This document shows positions 29,684 through 38,748 of a stretch of DNA of 45,153 bases, in pieces. This DNA comes from Thermoplasmatota archaeon. GTDB lineage: Archaea; Thermoplasmatota; JAKEGO01. Position 1 is the first letter of the stretch; each line of letters opens with the position of its first letter. The position numbers and the translations under genes were made by a program. A model generated the notes under the pieces. The model searched no databases. It worked only from the letters and a program-made list of their open reading frames with translations, and had not been told where the DNA came from. The DNA is taken from the NCBI GenBank assembly GCA_028279595.1, contig JANQNK010000021.1, forward strand, positions 1 through 45,153, in the 5' to 3' direction.

Positions 29684-30436
29684 TCAAATTCGCCTGGCTG
29701 TCACGAGGAAGCCGGAGTGGGCAGGGCCGGTGAATGACGGACGGAGCCCCTCATCCGACTTGGAGAGCTCCCATTCGCGATTTATCGATTCCCTGCACGT
29801 GGGCGCCGTGAACTCCTGACCGAACGAGCGCATCAGCCTCTCGACCTGTGTGGTGGTCGGTAAATAGGCCACCAGGTAGCCTCCCGGTCGAAGGACCCTT
29901 ATCGCGGCAGAGAGCACACCCCACGGCTCCGGTACGTCGAGGACCATCGCATCCGCGTCTACGATCGGGCAATCGGTGACGTCGCCGCTGTGGAAGTCCA
30001 CCCGGCCGGCGAATCCGGCGAGCTCGATGTTAGCCCTTGCGAGGTCCGTCGACGACTCCCTGAGGTCGAACGTATCGACGTGGCCGGTCTCGCCCACGTG
30101 GGAGGCGAGGACGATGGTGGCGCAGCCGGTTCCCGTGCCGCCCTCCACCACGCGGGAGCCGGGAGAGATGCCGGCGAGGTGGACGATCTGTGCCGCTGTC
30201 TCGGGAACTATTATCTGGGGCCCACGTTTCAGGACGTCCAGCGCGTCCCGCCACACGGGATGTGCGACAGTGAACTCCGAGCCGAGGAGTGAGATCCTTG
30301 CACCGGGTTCCGCGCCTACCACGGCCGATGTTGGGAGGACAGAATCGCCGTCCCGCAGGGGCTCGCCCGCCCGGACGAGGTGGGTGGTGCCGTCGGCGCC
30401 GATGAGGACCACGCGGTCCCCCTCGCCAACGGGCAT
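29684..30436 (-). CDS. trmI: tRNA (adenine-N1)-methyltransferase
   Basis: KRGPQII, VVEGGTGTG, LDVPEPW, YLPTTTQ and HSGFLV. Confidence 0.88.
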   Translation of the reverse strand: MPVGEGDRVVLIGADGTTHLVRAGEPLRDGDSVLPTSAVVGAEPGARISLLGSEFTVAHPVWRDALDVLKRGPQIIVPETAAQIVHLAGISPGSRVVEGGTGTGCATIVLASHVGETGHVDTFDLRESSTDLARANIELAGFAGRVDFHSGDVTDCPIVDADAMVLDVPEPWGVLSAAIRVLRPGGYLVAYLPTTTQVERLMRSFGQEFTAPTCRESINREWELSKSDEGLRPSFTGPAHSGFLVTARRI

Positions 30437-31269
30437 CAGACCTCCTCTGAGGTCATGAGGCGTATCAGCTTCTTGGTGAACCGCCTGTAGAAGTCGGTGT
30501 CGAAACGTATGAACCTCGCCAGCTCGTCGGACCTTTCGAAGGTGACGGTCTGGTCCGGTTCGATGGCGGCCTCGGCCTGGCCGTCGAGGACGAGCAGGGC
30601 GTCCTTCCCGTCGAGGAGGCGCACCTCTATCCGGCTGTCGGAGGAGACCACGAACGGACGGGCGGACAGTTTGAAGGGGGCGATCGGGACGATTATGAAG
30701 GCCTTGGCCTTCGGATCGACGATGGGCGACCCGACGCTGAGGGCGTAGCAGGTGGACCCGGTGGGCGTTGCGATGATCAGACCGTCCGCCCTGAACCTCA
30801 GGGGGTCGGATGTGTCGACCTGGACCTCGAAGTGACGCATCTTCGATATCTGTGTGGTGTGGATCACGGCCTCGTTGACCGCCGCGGGCTGGTGGTCCCC
30901 GCCCACGATGGTCGTCAGCTTGTTGCGGGCATCTATGGAGTAGTCCCCCAGGATCAACCGGGACACACCCTCCCGCCAGTCCTCGGGCTGTACCTCCGCG
31001 AGGAATCCGAGTGCGCCCATGTTGATGCTGAATATTGGATGCGTGGTGTGCTGCGCCGTCCTGAGGATGGTCCCGTCGCCGCCGATCGTTATGATGACGT
31101 CGATGTCCATGTCGTCGAGCGGGGCGGAATCGCCGTCCCAGCCGGTGGCCGCGGCGAACTGGTCGTCCAGTACGGCAGCCTCGTCGTGGCCGCGGATGAA
31201 CTCGGCGACGTCCGCCGCCATCTTGATCGCCTCTGGCATGTCAGGCCGCGCTGTCACACCGAATCTCAT
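30436..31269 (-). CDS. nadK: NAD kinase
   Basis: GGDGTILR, NMGALGFL, NE and DGLIIATPTGSTCYALSVG. Start taken at ATG 31269. Confidence 0.93.
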   Translation of the reverse strand: MRFGVTARPDMPEAIKMAADVAEFIRGHDEAAVLDDQFAAATGWDGDSAPLDDMDIDVIITIGGDGTILRTAQHTTHPIFSINMGALGFLAEVQPEDWREGVSRLILGDYSIDARNKLTTIVGGDHQPAAVNEAVIHTTQISKMRHFEVQVDTSDPLRFRADGLIIATPTGSTCYALSVGSPIVDPKAKAFIIVPIAPFKLSARPFVVSSDSRIEVRLLDGKDALLVLDGQAEAAIEPDQTVTFERSDELARFIRFDTDFYRRFTKKLIRLMTSEEV

Positions 31270-31326
31270 GGGACCGCATCGGGCTCTTAGAATAAAGTTT
31301 TTTATATTGTAAGCCATGGCCGGGGG

Positions 31327-32247
31327 ATGACCGGTGCTGGACGGGCGGTCGACGAGATACTCCGTCTCAGGGAGGAGAAGGGGTTGGCCATCATGGCCCA
31401 CAATTACCAGGTCCCGGAGGTCCAGGACCTGGCGGACATCGTCGGGGACTCGTTGTTCCTCGCGATGGAGGGGCTCAGGACCGGGGCCGACACTATCGTG
31501 TTCTGCGGGGTTGCCTTCATGGCCGAGACGGTAAAGGTGCTCAATCCGGAGAAGACCGTGGTGCACCCGGTGCCTGATTCACGCTGCCCTATGGCCGGTA
31601 TGGTCGATACGGAGACGCTCATGGCCCTGAAGGGGGAGAACCCCGGAGCCCCGGTTGTCACGTACGTCAACACAACGGCCGAGACGAAGGCGCTCTCCGA
31701 CATCTGCTGCACCTCGGCGAACGCCGTGAAGATCGTCAGATCGCTGCCGGACGAGAGGATCATCTTCGTCCCAGACCAGAACCTGGGGTCCTTCGTTCAG
31801 AGAATGGTCCCCGAGAAGGAGATCGTCCTGTACCCGGGATACTGCCACGTTCACATGGGAATATCGCTCGAGGACGTGGAGCGGCTCCGAAGGGAGCATC
31901 CGGAAGCGGAGGTACTGGTCCATCCGGAGTGCACGCCCGACGTCGTCGACGCCTCGGACCACGTCTATTCGACCGAGGGGATGATCAGACACGCAAGGGA
32001 CTCCGATGCGGATGAGTTCATCGTCCTCACCGAGAAGGAGCTCGCCTACAGGCTCTGGAAGGTCACGGGCAAGAGGGCCTACGCTCCAGACGCCACGTGT
32101 CCGAACATGAAGAAGATAACGCTGGAGGACGTCCTTTCGGCCGTCAGGGGGCTCGAGCCGACGGTCGAGCCGGACCCGGAACTCATGGTGAGGGCCAGGA
32201 TACCGATCCAGAGGATGCTGGACGTTGGGCGGGGCGACGAGGGATAG
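31327..32247 (+). CDS. nadA: Quinolinate synthase
   Basis: AHNYQ, GDSL, FCGV-FMAE, CPMA, YVNT, CTSAN, PDQNLG, HPEC and CPNMK. Confidence 0.96.
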   Translation: MTGAGRAVDEILRLREEKGLAIMAHNYQVPEVQDLADIVGDSLFLAMEGLRTGADTIVFCGVAFMAETVKVLNPEKTVVHPVPDSRCPMAGMVDTETLMALKGENPGAPVVTYVNTTAETKALSDICCTSANAVKIVRSLPDERIIFVPDQNLGSFVQRMVPEKEIVLYPGYCHVHMGISLEDVERLRREHPEAEVLVHPECTPDVVDASDHVYSTEGMIRHARDSDADEFIVLTEKELAYRLWKVTGKRAYAPDATCPNMKKITLEDVLSAVRGLEPTVEPDPELMVRARIPIQRMLDVGRGDEG

Positions 32248-32254
32248 TCAGGCC

Positions 32255-32652
32255 ACCCCATCATTTCCTGTGGAGATGGGTGTGTTTATCACGTTGCCGA
32301 CCTTGATTCTCAGGAACATTGAGAATTATCCTTTACATCATGAGACAATTAATTCAGGGACATTTCATGCTCGATCGGTGAGAGGTTCTCCCTGACGGAT
32401 AAGAGATCCTCTATGTGAATTCGATCCTCTATCATTACGCTCCGGGATCCGTGAGACTTTGGTAGGGATCGTGGATCCCATAATCGAAAATGTTATGAAT
32501 TCGATATCTTTCTTCTTGAATTAATTCAAATTTTCTTTTTTCTAATAGAAATATTTTTATATAATTTAATATATGACATTTGGGGTATTTACAAACAAAG
32601 AAATATATCAAACATTTACAAACAAGAATGTCTCCAGTGGAAATATTGGGGT
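32255..32652. other. Probable chromosomal replication origin (oriC)
   Basis: Inverted ORB-like 22-mers TCTCCACAGGAAATGATGGGGT (minus, 32255-32276) and TCTCCAGTGGAAATATTGGGGT (plus, 32631-32652) flank an extremely AT-rich core (~32510-32630) in the longest intergenic gap of the window. Confidence 0.75.
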
Positions 32653-32771
32653 CCCCCTATGCTCATCGATCATAATGCTCATTAAATGTTCTTTCAAGTC
32701 GATGGAATACGACCACCGGGGAAAGGCATAAGTAAATCCGAGCGAGTTCGTAGGTCCAGAGGTAAGATATC

Positions 32772-33056
32772 ATGGTCACCAAGGAGGATGTTCTCGAACG
32801 GCTCGGCAAGGTCATGGACCCGGAGACCGGCATCGATGTCGTAAACATGAAGTTGATAGCCGATCTGAATGTCAGCGATGATGGCGAGGTGTCCTTGACG
32901 TTCGTCCCATCATCACCGTTCTGCCCCCTCGGGATCCAGCTCGCGTTCGCAATAAAAGAGGCGGCGAAGGAGGTCGAGGGCGTGTCCAAGGTCAATGTGA
33001 AGGTGGACAATCACCTCCAGGCTGACATGATAAACGAAATGCTGGAAAAGGCATGA
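32772..33056 (+). CDS. DUF59/MIP18 (SufT-like) Fe-S cluster assembly protein
   Basis: VMDPETGIDVV-M-LI and PSSPFCP. Confidence 0.88.
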   Translation: MVTKEDVLERLGKVMDPETGIDVVNMKLIADLNVSDDGEVSLTFVPSSPFCPLGIQLAFAIKEAAKEVEGVSKVNVKVDNHLQADMINEMLEKA

Positions 33057-35435: not shown

Positions 35436-37232
35436 ATGTTGCGCTTCGGACCCAACGGTATACCGCTGTCTTGCAAGGGGAGGACCTGGCTCGACGCTCT
35501 CTACGATGTGAAGGAGCTCGAATTGGAGGCCATCGAATTCCAGCTCCTCCGAGGGATCGGCGAACCCATCCCCGAGGCGGACCTCATAAAGGAGACCGGC
35601 CAGGAACTTGACATCTTCATCGCGGTCCACGCACCCTATTACATGGACCTCCTGGGCGACGACGAGAGTGCGGGCCGAAGCATCGAATATCTGAAATGGA
35701 GCGGCGAGGTCGCCGACTCCGTCGGCGCGAGGCTCGTGATCACCCATGTTGGCTTCTACGGCGACCTTGAGAGGAAGGAGGCCATCGACAGGGCCGTCGT
35801 GATGGTCCGCAAGATCAGGGACCACTACAAGAAGAAGAAGTACGAGCACAACCTCGGGATCGAGGTCCACGGGAAGCAGGACCTGTTCGGTAACCTGGAG
35901 GAGATCCTCGAGGTGACGAAACGGGTCTCAGGCACTGTCCCGGTCGTGAACTTCGCACACCTCCACGCGCGCGAGCGTGGCTTCTTCAAGAAGAAGGAGG
36001 ACTTCGAGGAGGTCTTCGAGGAGCTGTTCTCGGTCGAGGCCCCGTTCATCTACACGCTGTTCTCCGGGCTCGAACACGATTTCGAGGGCAACGAGCTCCG
36101 CTTCACCCCCATCAAGAAGGGCGACATGCGCTTCAACCCTCTGGCCGAGCTCCTCCTCGACAACGAGGACAAGGAGATCGTCGTGATATCCAGTTCTCCG
36201 CTCCTCGAGCACGACGCCCAGTACATGAAGGTCATCCTCAGCAGGATCGAGGAGAAGAGGATCCAGAAGGCCATCGCCCAGAAGGCCGCCGAGGAGGCGG
36301 CGAAGATCGAGGCCGCCAAGAAGAAGAAGGAGGAGGCCGCGAGGAAGAAGAAGGAAGCAGAGAAGAAGAAGAAAGAGGCGGAAAAGAAGAAGAAGGCCGA
36401 GGCCGAGAAGAAGAAGAAGGAAGCGGAAAAGAAGAAGAAAGAAGCGGAGAAGAAGAAGAAGGCTGAAGCCGAGAAGAAGAAGAAAGAGGCTGAAAAGAAG
36501 AAGAAGGCCGAGGCGGAAAAGAAGAAGAAAGAGGCAGAGAAGGCCAAGGCCGAAGCTGAGAAGAAGAAGAAGGCTGAAGCCGAGAAGAAGAAGAAAGAAT
36601 CGGAGAAGGCCAAGGCCGAAGCTGAGAAGAAGAAGAAGGCCGAGGCGGAAAAGAAGAAGAAGGAAGCGGAAAAGGCCAAGGCTGAAGCTGAGAAGAAGAA
36701 GACCGGTACCAAGTCGTCCACGGCCAAGAAGTCCGATACGAAGAAATCGACGTCGAAGAAGACCGACACCAAGAAATCGGAGACGAAGAAGGACACGAAG
36801 AAATCAGCGTCGAAGAAGTCCGACACCAAGACGTCGGATCCGAAGAAGGATACCAAGAAGTCAACCTCCAAGAAGACCGATACCAAGAAGTCGGATCCAA
36901 AGAAATCTGAATCCAAGAAATCGACCTCCAAGAAGGCCGACACGAAGAAGTCAACCTCCAAGAAGTCCGACACCAAGAAATCAGAGACGAAGAAGGACAC
37001 GAAGAAGTCCGAGACCAAGAAGTCAACCACCAAGAAGTCGGATACCAAGAAAACAGAGACAAAGAAGGACACGAAAAAAACCGAGACCAAGAAATCGACG
37101 TCAAAGAAGTCCGACACCAAGAAGTCCACATCAAAGAAGACAGATACCAAGAAATCAAGTTCGAAATCGACCTCCAAATCGTCGAGCTCGAAGAAGTCCG
37201 GATCGAAATCATCGACCAAGAAGAAGGGATGA
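35436..37232 (+). CDS. Endonuclease IV-like TIM-barrel protein with long lysine-rich repetitive tail
   Basis: MLRFGP-G, HAPYY, FAHLHAR and SPLLEHDA (archaeal Nfo-like family) in aa 1-270, then AEKKKK and KKSDTKKS repeats. Confidence 0.8.
   Translation: MLRFGPNGIPLSCKGRTWLDALYDVKELELEAIEFQLLRGIGEPIPEADLIKETGQELDIFIAVHAPYYMDLLGDDESAGRSIEYLKWSGEVADSVGARLVITHVGFYGDLERKEAIDRAVVMVRKIRDHYKKKKYEHNLGIEVHGKQDLFGNLEEILEVTKRVSGTVPVVNFAHLHARERGFFKKKEDFEEVFEELFSVEAPFIYTLFSGLEHDFEGNELRFTPIKKGDMRFNPLAELLLDNEDKEIVVISSSPLLEHDAQYMKVILSRIEEKRIQKAIAQKAAEEAAKIEAAKKKKEEAARKKKEAEKKKKEAEKKKKAEAEKKKKEAEKKKKEAEKKKKAEAEKKKKEAEKKKKAEAEKKKKEAEKAKAEAEKKKKAEAEKKKKESEKAKAEAEKKKKAEAEKKKKEAEKAKAEAEKKKTGTKSSTAKKSDTKKSTSKKTDTKKSETKKDTKKSASKKSDTKTSDPKKDTKKSTSKKTDTKKSDPKKSESKKSTSKKADTKKSTSKKSDTKKSETKKDTKKSETKKSTTKKSDTKKTETKKDTKKTETKKSTSKKSDTKKSTSKKTDTKKSSSKSTSKSSSSKKSGSKSSTKKKG
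36280..37229 (+). repeat. Degenerate coding tandem repeats (EAEKKKK, then KK[ST][DE]TKKS)
   Basis: Visible repeats of gccgagaagaagaag and gacaccaagaagtc with synonymous variation. Confidence 0.9.
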
Positions 37233-37236
37233 GGCC

Positions 37237-38748
37237 TTGGTCGACAAGGATGGTATGGCCGAGCTCGCCATCGCGATCGTCGGCTCGTGCCGCGACCCGG
37301 AATCATTGAAGAAGGAGTTCTCCCAACGATACGGGTGGGGCGGCCTGCCCCTCAACACCGAGATCATAGCAGCGGCGCCTCTCGAGGTCCGGGATGACGT
37401 GTCGAGGACGCTTCGGAAGAAGCCTTCGAGGACGATATCGGGCGTCGCGCCGGTGGCCGTCATGGCCTCTCCCGCTCCGTGCCCTCACGGGACGTGTGAC
37501 TTCTGTCCGGGGGGCGTCGATAACGACACCCCTCAGAGCTACACGGGCAGGGAACCCGCCGCGATGCGCGCCGCCGACAACGCCTACGATCCCGGGGCGC
37601 AGGTCCGGGCCCGTCTTTCCCAGTACCGCTCCGGAGGCCACTCCACCGACAAGGTGGACCTGATAGTCATGGGCGGGACCTTTTCGGCGAGGCCGAGGGA
37701 GTATCAGGAGTCCTTTGTGAAGGGCTGTCTCGATGCATTGAACGAGAGCGTCTCAGGTACCCTGGCCGAGGCCCAGAACGCCAATGCACGCGCTCCGAAC
37801 CGCTGCGTCGGCCTGACACTCGAGACGAGGCCCGACCTCTTCGGCCCAGATGGGGTCGACGACGCCGTCCGCCTTGGCACCACGAGGGTGGAACTGGGTG
37901 TCCAGACGCTCAGGGACGATGTACTTACGTCGGTCAACCGGGGTCATTCCGTCGCCGCTACGATCACGGCCACCCATGCGGCGAAGTCTGCAGGCCTGAA
38001 GGTCCTCTACCAGATGATGCCCGGCCTTCCAGGGACCACTCCCGAAGGCGACCTCGAGGACTTCGAACGGCTCTTCTCCGATCCAGGGTTCATGCCCGAC
38101 ATGCTGAAGATCTATCCGACACTGGTCATCGAGGGCACCAGACTTCACGACCTATGGTCCTCGGGGGACTACGAACCGATGGATGACGCGAACGCGGTCG
38201 ACCTCATCGCCCGGATCAAGGAGCTGGTCCCTCCCTGGGTCCGCATACAGAGGGTGCAGCGCGACATCCCGGCCCCGCTGATATCCGCTGGGGTCCGAAA
38301 GGGAAACCTTCGCGAGCTGGCCCAGCGCAGGATGGAGGAGGCTGGCAACAGATGCAAGTGCATCAGGTGCCGGGAGGTAGGACGGGTCGACGATGGCGGA
38401 GCGGATCACGAACTCAAGGCGAGGGAATACCAGGCCTCCGCCGGACGCGAGGTATTCCTCTCCTTCGAGAACGTGTCATCGATAGCAGCGTACCTCCGCC
38501 TCAGACTCGACGGCCATACTGCGCGCATCAGGGAGCTCAAGGTCCTGGGGGAGGTCGTTCCGCTGGGCCGTAGAGGCCCCGGTTGGCAGCACGGAGGACT
38601 GGGATCGGCACTTCTCAGCGAGGCCGAGTCCATCTCTGCCTCCGAGGGCGCCGACAAGGTACTGGTAACGAGCGGGGTCGGCGTCAGGGACTATTACTCG
38701 GCGAGGGGATACGCCCTCGATGGGATGTACATGGCCAAGACGATATGA
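37237..38748 (+). CDS. elp3: Elp3 tRNA uridine(34) acetyltransferase (radical SAM + GNAT)
   Basis: RTISGVAPVAVM, CPHGTCDFCPGG, SYTG-EP, ETRPD, KIYPTLV, RVQRDIP, CIRCRE and WQH-GLG. Confidence 0.95.
   Translation: MVDKDGMAELAIAIVGSCRDPESLKKEFSQRYGWGGLPLNTEIIAAAPLEVRDDVSRTLRKKPSRTISGVAPVAVMASPAPCPHGTCDFCPGGVDNDTPQSYTGREPAAMRAADNAYDPGAQVRARLSQYRSGGHSTDKVDLIVMGGTFSARPREYQESFVKGCLDALNESVSGTLAEAQNANARAPNRCVGLTLETRPDLFGPDGVDDAVRLGTTRVELGVQTLRDDVLTSVNRGHSVAATITATHAAKSAGLKVLYQMMPGLPGTTPEGDLEDFERLFSDPGFMPDMLKIYPTLVIEGTRLHDLWSSGDYEPMDDANAVDLIARIKELVPPWVRIQRVQRDIPAPLISAGVRKGNLRELAQRRMEEAGNRCKCIRCREVGRVDDGGADHELKAREYQASAGREVFLSFENVSSIAAYLRLRLDGHTARIRELKVLGEVVPLGRRGPGWQHGGLGSALLSEAESISASEGADKVLVTSGVGVRDYYSARGYALDGMYMAKTI

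Follow-up and report, generated by a model that had tools for sequence, protein, structure and literature searches.

The question raised by this locus is whether the gap behind a nadA gene in an uncultured member of the Thermoplasmatota is a chromosomal replication origin and, if so, what serves it when the genes on either side are not initiator genes. The window, by which is meant the whole stretch of 45,153 nucleotides that was analyzed, makes up the complete contig C15 of an assembly of 21 contigs and 2.29 Mb that is 86% complete. The source genome (G000) belongs to a taxonomic class of only three species genomes, all known only as metagenome-assembled genomes; the other two are G001, from another genus of the same family, and G002, from another family of the same order. 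One sequencing run, a coral metagenome, contained the stretch in its assembled contigs and is its probable source, and no RNA run containing the stretch was listed.

Inverted boxes around an AT-rich core

The features of the locus, in window coordinates, are as follows.

31327-32247, plus strand: nadA (quinolinate synthase), the upstream neighbour, outside the module (PF02445, E 7e-111)
32255-32276, minus strand: left origin recognition box, ORB(-), TCTCCACAGGAAATGATGGGGT, with the G-string at its low-coordinate outer end
32277-32489, no strand: spacer from the left ORB to the DUE, GC about 0.45, with the direct repeats GATCCTCTAT (twice) and TGAATTCGAT (twice)
32490-32630, no strand: DUE, a predicted AT-rich DNA unwinding element, with the direct repeat ATTTACAAACAA (twice)
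32631-32657, plus strand: right origin recognition box, ORB(+), TCTCCAGTGGAAATATTGGGGT followed by CCCCC, with the G-string at its high-coordinate outer end
32772-33056, plus strand: DUF59/FeS_assembly_P gene, the downstream neighbour, outside the module (PF01883)

A repeat search recovered the inverted arms at 32255-32276 and 32631-32652, which are 22 nt long, 82% complementary (18/22) and have 354 nt between them. Both arms fit the canonical pattern TCCA-NN-GGAAA-N4-GGGGT and are laid out as ORB(-)/DUE/ORB(+), the pattern described for Cdc6-type origins (Ori-Finder-Arch preprint). Read 5′ to 3′, each arm ends in a G-run, the left one on the minus strand and the right one on the plus strand, and both G-strings therefore face away from the centre. 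The arms also fit the published archaeal ORB consensus, CTTCCAGTGGAAACGAAAGGGGT, as well as that of the Methanomassiliicoccales, GTTCCAGTGGAAATGG-AGGGGTA, to which the 4-nt spacing is identical (PMC4153887).

Such sites are rare in this genome. Apart from the two arms, the 2.29 Mb assembly has no site with zero or one mismatch to TCCASTGGAAANNNNGGGGT (the left arm has one, the right arm none); two further genomic sites had two mismatches, and the reversed control of the same pattern gave no genomic site with two or fewer. Within the 45 kb window TCCASNGGAAA was found at two places only, the arms, the mean in shuffled windows being 0.18 matches with 4/100 shuffles reaching two, and the full 21-mer was unique within the window. 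A blastn search of the 461-bp element at 32240-32700 against the genome returned, besides the element itself, one 21-nt match on contig C1, and the element is thus single-copy.

The core between the arms is equally distinct. The GC content, about 0.62 in the flanks, dropped to 0.27-0.31 at the gap in 200-nt windows, and the 120 nt starting at 32498 have a GC of 0.175, lower than all but one of the 120-nt stretches of the whole 2.29 Mb assembly. The lowest such stretch, at C7:59297, contains no boxes and is located upstream of a 2744-aa ORF, and for these reasons it is probably a promoter. A degenerate ORB-like copy was identified inside the DUE of the module, at 32541-32555.

The nadA-DUF59 gene gap that holds the module measures 524 bp, as compared with a crude intergenic median of 156 bp. 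The genes around it are of housekeeping type and of chromosomal GC, and no integrase, rep, orc or replication gene was present among the 28 window ORFs scanned against Pfam. The sequence-only reading had described inverted 22-mers identical at 18 of 22 positions, made up of an ORB-type core plus an outward G-string, bracketing a strongly AT-rich core in a GC-rich window between nadA and a DUF59 gene. The repeat search, the strand of each G-run, the match to the archaeal consensus, the GC profile and the two Pfam assignments bear out this description in every part, and a multicopy MITE, which it had named as a refuting outcome, was checked for by the blastn search described above.

Two observations were made on other parts of the window. 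The longest GTG-started ORF for the NAD kinase gene at 30436-31566 (minus strand) shares 240 nt with the beginning of nadA; translation of the kinase probably begins further downstream, and nadK and nadA would then form a divergent pair. In the stretch at 35436-38000 the AT skew was unusually strong, at +0.39 to +0.45 per 2-kb window, and the coding GC3 skew was positive; the stretch differs from its neighbours in both respects, and it spans a 598-aa ORF with a xylose-isomerase-like TIM-barrel domain.

Conservation within the class and in other archaea

The ORB(-)/DUE/ORB(+) layout was present in both other members of the class. In G001 it is located behind nadA and reads CGCTCCAAAGGAAATCAGGGGGT (minus strand), AT-rich core, CTCTCCAGTGGAAATACTGGGGTCCCCCCC (plus strand). 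Window positions 32530-32657 aligned to this region with 76% identity (E 5.6e-16, blastn), a value similar to that for the nadA coding DNA (75%), and the DUE block TTTTTATAT-ATTTA-TATATGACATTTGGG is common to the two genomes. The downstream gene in G001 is a different one, its DUF59 gene being located 6 kb off on the opposite strand. The module of G002 comprises two left boxes, about 130 bp of very AT-rich core and a right box reading CTCCAGTGGAAAAACAGGGGTCCCCC. It is bordered by queH on one side and by a Pop5-like gene followed by an XPD-like helicase on the other, and nadA is found on a separate contig; linkage of nadA to the module was seen in G000 and G001 only. The spacer is not conserved in these relatives: across the three genera it measures anywhere between about 30 and about 215 bp. 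In G000, G001 and G002 alike the right box directly adjoins the core, and CTCCAGTGGAAA-N4-GGGGTCCCCC is invariant in all three.

Comparison of the six good boxes from the three genera showed that TCCA, GGAAA and GGGGT never vary, and that the dyad centre and the 4-nt spacer do vary, without compensation between the arms. Such a combination typifies a protein-binding site, as opposed to an RNA stem, and the boxes, as judged from their sequences, fit the former. Outside the class, a nadA-based metagenome scan yielded 80 more distant loci (no more than 59% identity), of which 0/80 carried a box, and the class-specific right-arm pattern gave 0 matches in metagenomes.

The box motif itself is widespread. 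The pattern TCCAGTGGAAA-N4-GGGG was found in 158 of 401 sampled Thermoplasmatota genomes, its reversed control in two genomes only. The right-arm form, CTCCAGTGGAAA-N4-GGGGTCCCC, occurred at 26 loci in diverse archaea among 185,579 species genomes, and at 12 of these 26 loci the sequence retrieved, up to 8 kb long, also contained an orthologue of the Orc1 protein encoded on contig C11 (Orc1-1; see below). The orc1-1-linked loci include Metallosphaera yellowstonensis, a Sulfolobales genome, Methanosarcina, Methanoculleus, Methanomassiliicoccaceae and Nitrososphaerales. Because the same motif recurs at orc1-1-linked loci elsewhere, the arms are assigned, by sequence comparison, to the conserved oriC1 type of box and not to an element-specific type.

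Initiator genes and their linkage to the boxes

Two orc1/cdc6 genes were identified in the genome.

C11:162309-163571, minus strand: orc1-1 (Orc1-1 class), with a Cdc6_C match and structure-database matches
C5:34876-36042, minus strand: second, divergent orc1, its product 26% identical to the C11 Orc1

The window had been said to be free of orc1/cdc6, and this is the case, since the genome's two Cdc6_C matches sit on other contigs; the search for such genes elsewhere in the genome, proposed at the same time, led to C11 and C5, neither of which is the module contig. The positions of these genes and of the module on their contigs set minimum distances of 51 kb to the C11 orc1-1 and 47 kb to the C5 orc1. 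The C11 Orc1 protein matched Sulfolobus solfataricus Orc1-1 (2QBY_A, E 2.5e-97) and Aeropyrum pernix ORC1 (2V1U, E 3e-94), structures that were both solved on ORB DNA, and it is 43-58% identical to the ORB-adjacent Orc1 proteins of other archaea. The region upstream of orc1-1 in G000 is intergenic and AT-rich, and no site in it had fewer than 3 mismatches. Module and orc1-1 are on separate contigs in G002 too, at least 16.6 kb apart, and no orc1 was found in the 73% complete G001 assembly.

A further box was observed in G002. On contig C111 (L065:3380-3401) the orc1-1 orthologue is preceded, at a distance of about 300 nt, by the one-mismatch box TCTCCACACGAAATCAGGGGGT; some weaker box-like sites occur close by, and there is no strong AT-rich core. 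This box may be a relic of ancestral linkage, or it may be a self-regulatory site.

The best explanation of these data is that the locus is an Orc1/Cdc6-type chromosomal origin of the conserved oriC1 kind, predicted to be served in trans, and we regard this as likely. The original proposal of an origin served in trans thus finds support at the sequence level in the boxes and their orientation, the core, the single copy, the conservation across the class, and the location of orc1-1 elsewhere in the genome. With the anatomy of the locus, its rarity, its class-wide conservation and an initiator of the cognate class established, Orc1 binding, MCM loading and firing at this site are predicted, and the steps can be put forward by analogy with the biochemistry of Sulfolobus and Aeropyrum. 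One Orc1-1 monomer would bind each box, its winged-helix domain contacting the TCCA..GGAAA dyad and its AAA+ initiator-specific motif contacting the G-string. The outward G-strings would orient both Orc1-1 proteins towards the AT-rich core, at about 32490-32630, where MCM loading and DNA melting would then occur. The initiator would act in trans, as the Orc1-1 orthologue produced from C11, at least 51 kb away.

Several known origins can be compared with this predicted one. Aeropyrum pernix oriC1 is similar in having dyad plus G-string ORBs around an AT-rich region and an Orc1-1-class initiator; it differs in that A. pernix is a crenarchaeon in which binding has been shown biochemically, whereas G000 is an uncultured member of the Thermoplasmatota known from sequence alone. 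A. pernix oriC1 is reported to have four boxes, as compared with two here and three in G002. The predicted origins of the Methanomassiliicoccales, which belong to the same phylum, share the ORB variant GTTCCAGTGGAAATGG-AGGGGT and have boxes arranged mostly as inverted pairs (PMC4153887). In that group, however, the paired boxes flank orc1/cdc6.1 with only single orphans elsewhere (PMC4153887), whereas here the pair and its DUE are at least 51 kb off. Sulfolobus oriC1 has the same ORB(-)/DUE/ORB(+) arrangement, and the right-arm form is also found beside orc1-1 in Metallosphaera and a Sulfolobales genome; Sulfolobus oriC1, unlike the unlinked module of G000, immediately precedes cdc6-1 and needs that gene in order to fire (PMC4010727). 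The Hyperthermus butylicus oriC and the Ori-Finder-Arch 'Type III structure-match' origins can also be compared, ORB(-)/DUE/ORB(+) with no adjacent initiator being a category that is already recognized. Ori-Finder-Arch asks for at least three boxes for a Type III call, that is, when there is no adjacent initiator gene, and as G000 has two canonical boxes and one degenerate copy the pipeline might miss the locus.

Archaeal origins are typically found beside an initiator gene, on which the characterized origins depend, and in the haloarchaea cis placement is not required for ARS activity (PMC4010727). The absence of a neighbouring initiator had been presented as unusual, and it is less so than was implied: neither cdc6 gene of A. 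pernix adjoins the predicted origins (PMC5333045), and the H. butylicus oriC lacks a neighbouring initiator gene (Ori-Finder-Arch preprint). Given these precedents for trans-served origins, a specialist should find the locus useful rather than surprising. It provides a concrete candidate origin for a class-level lineage of the Thermoplasmatota, and origin finders anchored on orc1/cdc6 would search in the wrong place in this genome. Although uncommon, an unlinked layout of this sort has been described before; of greater interest as a lead is the lineage-wide pattern.

That pattern was studied by comparing ORB positions with orc1-1 positions in the Thermoplasmatota, counting only genomes that listed both. 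Boxes and orc1-1 were on different contigs in every such genome of family f3 (14/14) and family f38 (11/11), that is, in 25/25 genomes listing both. In families f14, f26, f50 and f20 the boxes were adjacent to orc1-1 or no more than 2 kb from it, with one exception in f14 (G219), and in a genome of family f4 (G143) they flank orc1-1. From this survey, separation of canonical boxes from orc1-1 seems to extend to several Thermoplasmatota families, and it would qualify the textbook claim that archaeal origins lie beside the initiator gene.

It could be that the linkage between replicator and initiator has been lost repeatedly and stably in the Thermoplasmatota, both in the three-species class of G000 and in families f3 and f38, with the ORB-DUE-ORB cassette relocating as a unit and orc1-1 keeping a relic box. 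This interpretation is put forward tentatively, as a possibility somewhat short of an even chance. It would place the cassette behind nadA in one family and between queH and Pop5 in another, and the relic box would possibly be self-regulatory. If it is true, these lineages amount to a natural experiment on the importance of cis-linkage for origin control.

The arrangement of the boxes in families f3 and f38 was noted in G071 (C23:120492-124986; L059:4511-8969), and likewise in G369, G258 and G053: inverted canonical boxes are 4.4-4.5 kb apart. The boxes of these families bracket radical-SAM, TraB-like, CobW-like and HflX genes, and a PolD small-subunit gene and SRP RNA adjoin them.

Dormant, regulatory and mobile-element readings

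The serious rival is a dormant or purely regulatory Orc1 site, since lone boxes do occur before genes. According to this explanation the locus binds Orc1 and is not an active origin, being either a dormant or backup site or a relic kept for transcriptional control or chromosome organization, and replication starts elsewhere, for example beside the C11 orc1-1 or in the unassembled 14% of the genome. The clearest case of a lone box comes from the closed 2.06 Mb genome G036, in which the sole match to the box pattern (C1:305934) is canonical, lies about 50 nt upstream of mcm and is 395-540 kb from both orc1 genes, with no partner box and no AT-rich core. Boxes placed in this way, upstream of genes and without a DUE, indicate that a box by itself does not make an origin; in G036 the position of the box suggests control of mcm by Orc1. 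Orphan boxes have also been reported in Ca. M. intestinalis (PMC4153887), and dormant origins are documented in Haloferax mediterranei (PMC4595724). The AT-rich region upstream of orc1-1 in G000, and the one-mismatch box at the corresponding position in G002, would likewise be in keeping with initiation beside the initiator gene. At 86% completeness, the assembly could lack a stronger orc1-linked origin; however, orc1-1 and its flanks are assembled, and the region upstream of the gene has the poor box matches described above. The complete pair and its DUE have, moreover, been kept in all three genera despite relocation, and there are no other good boxes in the assembly. A site of this kind without origin activity is therefore considered unlikely.

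The dormant-site explanation also draws on nucleotide skew, which gave no supportive inflection. Raw GC skew, cumulative skew (for the window and for all contigs) and strand-corrected third-codon-position skew were calculated. No clean inflection was seen at the locus, and the same analysis was featureless at the ORB sites of G174, G071 and G258. A weak skew change from plus to minus was present near 32-33 kb. In G143, where the boxes flank orc1, there was a mild change from about zero to plus, a polarity opposite to that at the C15 locus. Skew and gene strand were negatively correlated (r = -0.46), and as this value may be a local operon effect the polarity of the skew could not be set. The closed genome G036 was dropped as a skew reference, its only pattern match being the lone box before mcm and not an origin module. 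Since skew was flat or noisy at the ORB sites of three other relatives it has little power here, and at this scale it was treated as uninformative rather than as negative evidence.

Another explanation is that the gap is a promoter or regulator region in which the 22-mers are operators of a non-Orc1 factor, acting on nadA, on the DUF59 operon or on a small RNA. A promoter for the DUF59 gene must indeed lie in the gap, a 21-nt copy of the left arm is present in another intergenic region (C1:80451-80471), and the RNA fold of the region has a z-score of -2.33. The fold score is, however, what any inverted repeat gives, the differences between the arms are not compensatory, and scans of the gap gave neither a tRNA nor an Rfam match (E<=1). 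The 22-mers carry the pan-archaeal ORB motif, which many phyla have at their orc1 loci and which 0/80 of the distant nadA loci carry; moreover, the gene downstream of the module is a different one in G001, and in G002 neither neighbour is the same. Operators of this kind are accordingly judged highly improbable. A structured non-coding RNA gene was rejected on the same findings (no Rfam match at E<=1, no tRNA, no compensatory arm changes, and a z-score of -2.33 attributable to the inverted repeat).

The weakest proposal, that the arms are the terminal inverted repeats of a MITE or other mobile element, or that the locus is the origin of an integrated plasmid or virus, can point to the neighbourhood in G000 and G001 differing from that in G002 and to the capture of extrachromosomal elements as an accepted source of extra archaeal origins (PMC4010727), but it is barely credible given flanks at chromosomal GC, boxes of the conserved oriC1 type and not of an element-specific one, the lack of integrase, rep or orc among the 28 window ORFs scanned and of a Cdc6_C match on C15, and the single copy of the 461-bp element (blastn), which rules out a MITE.

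Some box-like sequences were noted elsewhere in the G000 assembly. The match on C1 (C1:80451-80471) is an orphan ORB that shares the exact 21-mer CATCTCCACAGGAAATGATGG with the left arm and has a broken G-string (GGTG); it sits in a 250-bp gap between two minus-strand genes without a Pfam match and may be a regulatory Orc1 site. Contig C5, which carries the divergent second orc1, is low in GC (51% vs 58%). Its AT-rich gap at C5:32150-32470, 2.5 kb from that orc1 and separated from it by two glycosyltransferase genes, holds the G-string-less box GGTTCCAGTGGAAATGG and repeated TGTAATAC and TTACAAATG motifs. This gap and the C5 orc1 together are a candidate second origin or a candidate acquired island. 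Exact copies of the 14-mer TTCCAGTGGAAATG were also found in two further AT-rich gaps, at C11:154990-155010, upstream of a pyruvate-kinase-like gene and 7 kb from orc1-1, and at C4:251150-251175, at a low-GC contig end. Including the C5 copy, TTCCAGTGGAAATG occurs three times, as compared with about 0.02 occurrences expected.
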